A stretch of DNA of 64,000 nucleotides, taken from assembly GCF_003018255.1 (NCBI RefSeq), contig NZ_CP027440.1; one strand, given 5' to 3'. The notes under the pieces were generated by a model that saw only the letters and a list, made by a program, of their open reading frames with translations, ran no database searches and was not told the DNA's origin. Below are positions 20,954-21,080 of this stretch, piece by piece; position 1 is the stretch's first letter, and every line of letters begins with the position of its first letter. The position numbers and the translations under genes are program-made. Source of the DNA: Escherichia coli. GTDB lineage: Bacteria > Pseudomonadota > Gammaproteobacteria > Enterobacterales > Enterobacteriaceae.

Positions 20954-20964
20954 TACAGCTTAAT

Positions 20965-20990
20965 ATTGCCCCGATAAGCGGGGCAATCTC
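20965..20990 (+). terminator. rho-independent terminator after ygiC
   Basis: ATTGCCCCG-ataa-GCGGGGCAAT stem followed by a T-rich tract. Confidence 0.6.
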
Positions 20991-21048
20991 TTATAATCCA
21001 CCATTCATAATTCCCATCAATATATAAACACATACATATCCAACCTTT

Positions 21049-21080
21049 ATTTAACATTAATACTCAATTTAATGTTAAAT
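21049..21080. promoter_or_regulatory. perfect 12 bp inverted repeat (ATTTAACATTAA-N8-TTAATGTTAAAT) in AT-rich region upstream of assT
   Basis: Arms are exact reverse complements, separated by tactcaat; about 360 bp upstream of the assT start. Confidence 0.3.

Follow-up and report, generated by a model that had tools for sequence, protein, structure and literature searches.

The closest described system is the assT-dsbL-dsbI operon of Salmonella Typhi, which, as far as PMC4264507 relates the work of Gallego-Hernandez et al. (2012), has H-NS as its repressor and LeuO as its activator. For both proteins, sites have been described: a palindromic 7-N5-7 core, ATATTCA-N5-TGAATAT, for LeuO (Fragel et al. 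2019, PMC6698644), and the high-affinity site tCGATAAATT for H-NS (Lang et al. 2007, PMC2094087). In the window considered here (the whole 64,000-nucleotide stretch of Escherichia coli DNA that was analysed), the same operon lies, as in S. Typhi, behind some 400 bp of AT-rich upstream sequence, and both upstream sequences carry a probably homologous block, which reads ATTTAACAT..TTTAACGTTAAA in Salmonella and is located at about -380. Unlike its E. coli counterpart, the Salmonella block adjoins an intact, divergently transcribed yqiD gene and contains a contiguous 12-bp palindrome, whereas E. coli has an inverted repeat of the form 12-8-12, which is the subject of this study. This repeat resembles the LeuO core in being an AT-rich dyad in an H-NS-silenced promoter region, but the core spans 19 bp around an odd centre and the repeat 32 bp around an even one, and their sequences differ, the agreement of at most 9 of 14 positions being at chance level. 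With regard to H-NS, both arms have a core, GTTAAAT, that is similar to the template, and the ancestral form ACGTTAAAAT is nearly identical to the site at gadX, whereas the E. coli arms agree at 7 of 10 positions, have no CG step and score below the best matches upstream of assT.

The assT island and its inverted repeat

The genes of the window are ordered tolC-ygiB-ygiC, assT-dsbL-dsbI, ygiD (minus strand), zupT, yqiD (minus strand) and ribB. Since ygiC and ygiD are just 37 bp apart at the corresponding site of K-12, the 3.7-kb assT-dsbL-dsbI segment (about 20954 to 24648) is an accessory island, which 1508 of 5426 complete E. coli genomes carry. The operon is found mainly in extra-intestinal and B2/D-type E. 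coli, and its control in this species is essentially unstudied. On the plus strand, the island encodes AssT (21438-23234; 598 aa, annotated as an aryl-sulfate sulfotransferase in an E. coli genome whose ygiC-assT intergenic region is identical), DsbL (23252-23920) and DsbI (23935-24605, broken by a 1-nt deletion). The ygiC-assT intergenic region (20954-21437, plus strand; 484 bp, 28% GC) forms the left end of the island and includes a terminator-like hairpin of ygiC, ATTGCCCCG/CGGGGCAAT (20965-20987, plus strand; -15.4 kcal/mol), which has a weak U tail and was not called by a terminator scan.

The repeat consists of a left arm, ATTTAACATTAA (21049-21060), and a right arm, TTAATGTTAAAT (21069-21080), which are exact reverse complements on either side of the 8-nt spacer TACTCAAT (21061-21068). 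The assT ATG (21438) follows 358 bp after the end of the right arm, so that both the perfect 12-bp symmetry and the distance of about 360 bp reported in the first-pass annotation of this DNA are borne out. All 12 arm positions are complementary, as the dyad symmetry of a palindromic operator would have it, and 0.25% of 2000 dinucleotide-preserving shuffles of the 484-bp region produced a perfect inverted repeat with arms of 12 nt or more and no more than 20 nt between them (P about 0.0025). Five distinct perfect repeats of such size occur in the 64-kb window, and the other four are G+C-rich. Two of these, perfect 12-13-bp inverted repeats at the gene ends of dsbI/ygiD (24615-24643) and zupT/yqiD (26365-26395), form hairpins that resemble bidirectional terminators.

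A 48-mer across the repeat is 100% identical in 1231 of the 1236 complete E. coli genomes that match it, always at the assT locus except for a single plasmid copy. Given its median of one place per genome across the 1236 genomes, the end of a mobile element or a MITE was rejected. The intergenic region as a whole was likewise seen in one copy on a plasmid record, and one genome has it in two places.

Conservation within Escherichia

We compared six Escherichia lineages (three E. coli alleles, E. whittamii, one Escherichia species and E. albertii), whose intergenic regions are 48-87% identical in pairs. Only 29-43% of the columns across this region are invariant, and just two invariant runs reach 11 nt or more: the left arm, as ATTTAACATTA(A), and the assT Shine-Dalgarno region, where TTATATAAGGAGAT and the start codon (21418-21440, plus strand) do not vary. 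The left arm, the constrained part of the repeat, is invariant in five lineages and agrees at 11 of 12 positions in E. albertii, and its core ATTTAACA was found in 16 of 16 sequences compared, native yqiD upstream regions included. On the plus strand this arm contains TTAACA, which matches five of the six positions of the -35 hexamer; on the minus strand it reads TGTTAAAT.

The right arm is looser. Its six versions, TTAATGTTAAAT, TTAATATTAAAT, TTAATGTCATAT, TTAATACTAAAT, TTAACGTTAATT and TTTCTCTTTCTT, retain 12, 11, 10, 10, 10 and 5 complementary positions, respectively; in E. albertii it is lost (5/12) and the left arm is retained. The second of these versions belongs to an E. coli allele of 262 genomes (e.g. 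ST38), with an intergenic region 79% identical to that of the window, in which the left arm is kept and the spacer is different. The length of the spacer is fixed at 8 nt in all six lineages and its sequence is never the same, the other lineages having TTCCTAAT, CGACCAAT, TAACCAAT, CAAATAAC and CCGTTCAT.

Compensatory changes between the arms were not found in any of the six lineages, and selection thus appears to maintain the left arm and the spacing rather than base pairing or perfect symmetry. The perfect symmetry, confined to one E. coli allele, is a lineage-specific trait. Because the left arm is invariant, the right arm looser, and the spacer fixed in length and free in sequence, the comparison would indicate a two-part DNA recognition element. 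A sigma-70-like -35/-10 pair yields the same two-part pattern as a protein site.

Relation to the divergent yqiD gene

Outside Escherichia, Citrobacter and Salmonella have a block, ATTTAACAT...TTTAACGTTAAA, at the same distance from assT as the E. coli repeat: the motif ATTTAACATCATTAAACATTTAACGTTAAAAT of seven Citrobacter species, S. enterica and S. arizonae lies mostly at -377 to -382 from the assT ATG (at -533 in C. amalonaticus), and the Escherichia repeat at -364 to -389. The block contains TTTAACGTTAAA as a perfect 12-bp palindrome together with a further TTTAAC copy, and aligns by hand to the E. coli repeat with 26 of 33 columns identical and two 1-nt gaps. C. rodentium possesses assT and a broken palindrome. 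The gene order in Citrobacter and Salmonella is ygiC-ygiD-zupT-yqiD (minus strand), then assT (plus strand), and the block is found 20-60 bp upstream of the divergent yqiD start. In these genera, yqiD together with 118 bp upstream, block included, aligns to the native yqiD region of E. coli (26413-26701 of the window) with E values of 1e-45 to 1e-59, and to judge from this alignment the yqiD upstream regions are clearly orthologous.

Native yqiD itself (26413-26583, minus strand) codes for a 56-aa small membrane protein, and the YqiD protein has been detected experimentally (PMC6001520). The counterpart of the repeat upstream of it, ATTTAACAATACTAAACATTTAGCGCATAAAT (26599-26630), has only 5 of 12 arm positions complementary. 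The homology of the island block to the yqiD-upstream block is borderline and leans on positional agreement, with an nhmmer E value of 0.038 in one Escherichia lineage and local-alignment P values of 0.01-0.06 in two lineages and not significant in four. A direct BLAST comparison of the island's intergenic region with the native yqiD region was not significant (E=0.32), and we argue their homology through the Citrobacter intermediates.

To the left of the E. coli repeat, the intergenic region contains an SD-like AAAGG, ATG/GTG codons and a TTTAT motif. This stretch, with approximate limits of 20990 and 21037 on the minus strand (AAAGG followed by ATGTATGTGTTTATATATTGA), aligns with the yqiD start in Citrobacter, Salmonella and Pseudocitrobacter. 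Minus-strand open reading frames over it measure 3-42 aa and are not conserved, and a small ORF beginning at the CAT in the left arm was rejected on the same grounds. The E. coli island thus carries a decayed copy of yqiD; since only this 5' remnant of the gene is kept there, the repeat has probably come down from the yqiD-assT control region.

In Pseudocitrobacter, the genes are arranged as ygiC-yqiD-assT-dsbL-dsbI-ygiD, with yqiD intact. Because this island occupies the Escherichia site, the arrangement suggests that it came before the decay of yqiD in Escherichia. In Pseudocitrobacter vendiensis (locus L007, 2465-3000), the intact yqiD lies between ygiC and assT. Of yqiD loci that lack assT outside E. 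coli, we found a single one, a metagenomic locus (L068) that is very divergent and in which the block could not be recognised. Lin, Kim and Slauch are said to have described assT-dsbL-dsbI, in Microbiology in 2009, as ancestral in Enterobacteriaceae and lost in many lineages, a history that fits the synteny observed here.

Our preferred reading, to which we give a probability of about 0.45, is that an ancestral control region lay between divergent yqiD and assT genes and that the repeat derives, in Escherichia, from its yqiD-proximal part. In Citrobacter, Salmonella and, by gene order, Pseudocitrobacter, yqiD is transcribed away from assT, and ATTTAACAT-N15-GTTAAA, with the perfect palindrome TTTAACGTTAAA, precedes yqiD by 20-60 bp and assT by about 380 bp. 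The Escherichia island is located between ygiC and ygiD, with its yqiD copy decayed and the block still in place. The right arm presumably descends from the ancestral palindrome (T)TTAACGTTAAA, and the 12/12 symmetry may be a lineage-specific elaboration through an ACG to ATG change in this old palindrome, added to the self-complementary TTAA of each arm. Perfect symmetry would in that case be an accident of descent from an older palindrome and not a selected feature, and this eye-catching trait cautions against taking symmetry for function.

Several further features were seen around native yqiD. About 105 bp upstream of the gene lies a perfect 6-4-6 palindrome, TATGAT-TTTG-ATCATA (26686-26701), which is kept in E. 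coli, Citrobacter and Salmonella and overlaps the -10 element of the best yqiD promoter candidate; another palindrome, ATATCC-N6-GGATAT (26636-26653), occurs in E. coli and is absent from Citrobacter and Salmonella. Some island-bearing E. coli (loci L062-L064) have a YqiD variant (P0080) that is only 69% identical to the K-12 protein, and upstream of this variant yqiD there are fimbrial subunit and usher genes in place of ribB.

Possible roles of the repeat and its neighbours

On the preferred reading, descent from the yqiD-assT control region, the repeat could act at the DNA level as a recognition element in two parts, similar to a promoter or to a site for a nucleoid protein, within an AT-rich, H-NS-type tract like the one by which assT is silenced in S. 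Typhi. The left arm would provide TG-TTAAAT as a -10-like and the right arm TTAACA as a -35-like element, 18 bp apart on the minus strand. Like a sigma-70 core, the repeat combines two short conserved elements with a spacer of fixed length and free sequence, and TTAACA-18-TTAAAT can be read on both strands, possibly as a divergent pair. A promoter-type core of this kind would account for an invariant left arm, a looser right arm and a spacer that is kept in length but not in sequence, and when placed on the minus strand it seems to fit this pattern slightly better than a symmetric operator.

The E. coli match scores 9 of 12 and was not called by a promoter scan; Citrobacter and Salmonella have TTAACA-18-TAAAAT directed toward assT (10/12). 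Promoter-like matches are no more frequent in these AT-rich regions than in their shuffles. Against a promoter, TTAAAT breaks the usual -10 rule, since it has no A at position 2; moreover, a leftward promoter would be left with no obvious gene once yqiD had decayed, and offers no selective reason for the invariance of the left arm. At the native locus, there is a stronger yqiD promoter candidate further upstream, TTGATA-18-TATGAT at 26725-26696, which, if used, would place the block in the yqiD leader and make it a 5'-UTR element. Taken together, the repeat is most likely, as far as comparative sequence analysis can tell, a genuine and partly constrained cis-element of an ordinary candidate regulatory kind, and not a demonstrated symmetric operator.

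The first-pass annotation had favoured a binding site for a dimeric regulator. Such a symmetric operator of a specific transcription factor, with one subunit on each arm, the arm centres 20 bp apart on the same helix face, and control over assT and ancestrally over yqiD, is unlikely but has part of the evidence on its side. The dyad is perfect and non-random, both arms are better conserved than the spacer sequence, and conserved arms at a fixed 8-nt spacing around a free spacer are what a two-part protein site would look like; complementarity extends to 10 of 12 arm positions even in L005, a lineage of 55% identity, and the perfect palindrome TTTAACGTTAAA with its further TTTAAC copy is kept in Citrobacter and Salmonella. 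However, only the left arm is invariant, the two arms differ in evolutionary rate, and the right arm (10-11 of 12 positions, lost in E. albertii) drifts without compensation. C. rodentium retains assT despite its broken palindrome, and the geometry of the dyad changes from a spacer of 0 in one genus group to 8 in the other.

The search for a matching regulator, as the first-pass annotation had proposed, gave no better support to such an operator. The assT island contains no regulator gene, and the supplements of PMC5001712 hold no entry for assT. We scored LeuO sites with the consensus ATATTCA-N5-TGAATAT, derived from the K-12 Pcas and leuO sites following PMC6698644; the best 19-mers overlapping the repeat reach 7-9 of 14 positions, a level that shuffles commonly exceed or equal (9-11), and a LeuO core site at the repeat was rejected.

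Among other E. coli regulators, to our knowledge none of FNR, Fur, Zur, ArcA, PhoP, CpxR, OmpR and SlyA, and none of CRP, NarL, IHF, the LacI family and the LTTR motif T-N11-A, fits both arms, a comparison made informally and by eye with their consensus sites. It is improbable, furthermore, that the TTTAAC/GTTAAA half-sites form the operator of a specific regulator that jointly controls YqiD and the aryl-sulfotransferase operon in Escherichia, Citrobacter and Salmonella, with the 12-8-12 repeat of E. coli as a re-spaced version of the ancestral palindrome. Part of the original proposal stands, in that the repeat does belong to the upstream region of assT; by origin, it apparently descends from the control region of the divergent yqiD and not from an operator specific to assT.

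A site for H-NS nucleation and/or LeuO antagonism within the assT silencing region is rather unlikely as well, although the S. Typhi operon is controlled by just these two proteins and the AT-rich context needed by an H-NS site is present at the repeat. The intergenic region with its 28% GC has four times the density of H-NS-template matches of the window (87 per kb against 21 per kb), and ACGTTAAAAT of the Citrobacter/Salmonella palindrome is identical in 9 of 10 positions to the footprinted H-NS site of gadX, TCGTTAAAAT. The E. coli arms, however, each match the template tCGtTAaATt at only 7 of 10 positions, as do 42 sites in the 484 bp, and have lost its CG step, whereas the best match (9/10, at 21240) lies outside the repeat; the best LeuO-like sites, at 21351 and 21392, are also elsewhere. 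Degenerate binding by a nucleoid protein would, moreover, not predict a 12-nt invariant run.

We also give little credence to the repeat as a non-functional relic, i.e. leftover promoter or leader DNA of yqiD whose symmetry in this allele is accidental. The decay of yqiD in the island, the restriction of perfect symmetry to one allele, and the self-complementary TTAA of both arms in an AT-rich sequence of low complexity would all agree with a relic. For neutral DNA, an invariant run of 11-12 nt over six lineages in which 29-43% of columns are invariant is unexpected, and the shuffle P of 0.0025 likewise argues against it.

A hairpin that acts at the RNA level, be it as a terminator, as an attenuator or as an sRNA element, in transcripts running through the intergenic region is highly improbable: the predicted 12-pair stem (-9.3 kcal/mol, z=-7.6) and the possible position of the native block in a yqiD 5'-UTR, should the promoter at 26725-26696 be used, are set against a pairing that is free of covariation and degraded in other lineages, and against the absence of a U tract on either strand, of a terminator call on either strand at the repeat, and of an Rfam family at gathering threshold there, where two hits below threshold (E=0.14 and E=0.8) were put down to chance. 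The A/U-rich stem with its one G-C pair in 12 thus bears out the earlier judgement that the repeat is not an intrinsic terminator, and an attenuator hairpin was rejected for want of a U tract and of covariation. Each arm also contains TAATGTTAAAT, a match at 10 of 11 positions to TTATGTTAAAT, the XerD-binding arm of dif. Unlike dif, the repeat has only XerD-like arms, no XerC arm, and a central region of 10 bp rather than 6-8; such XerD-arm-like matches occur at chance-level frequency (3 found, 1.24 expected), a partner dif-like site was not found at the other end of the island, and a Xer site was rejected.

Closer to assT, conserved block B (AAAAACAATGTTGCAGGGATCACACTA, 21193-21219, plus strand; AAAAACAATG..GATCACACTA) shows no variation within Escherichia, and its similarity to Citrobacter and Salmonella is significant. 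It contains TGTTG-N6-TCACA (21201-21216), which reads TGTCG-N6-TCACA in the latter two genera and is CRP-like by comparison with the CRP consensus. As a candidate for regulator binding, this putative CRP-like site is better conserved than the repeat. Block B is followed by a promoter-like TTCACG-17-TAAAAT in S. enterica.

Two LeuO-core-like matches are located 87 and 46 bp before the assT ATG on the plus strand, ATATTCA-CGTAA-CGAATTT (21351-21369; 12/14) and ATATTCA-TCATT-ATTATAT (21392-21410; 11/14). A score of at least 12, that of the best site in the intergenic region, was reached in 12 of 500 shuffles. Their position near assT is consistent with the LeuO dependence reported for S. Typhi. 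The constrained blocks upstream of assT, namely the 12-nt left arm, the CRP-like block at 21193-21219 and the LeuO-like sites near the start codon, provide reporter and footprinting work with precise targets.

Within the operon, a 1-nt deletion at 24126-24127 relative to intact dsbI splits the gene into open reading frames of 66 and 166 aa. Since the 66-nt stretch at this frameshift has an exact match in none of 1496 gene-bearing E. coli genomes (best 98.5%), the frameshift is private to the source or a sequencing error. A genuine frameshift would prevent the re-oxidation of DsbL and should impair AssT activity. In strain 2014C-3338, whose ygiC-assT intergenic region is identical to that of the window, nudF is annotated as frameshifted (locus L001, 701-1329).
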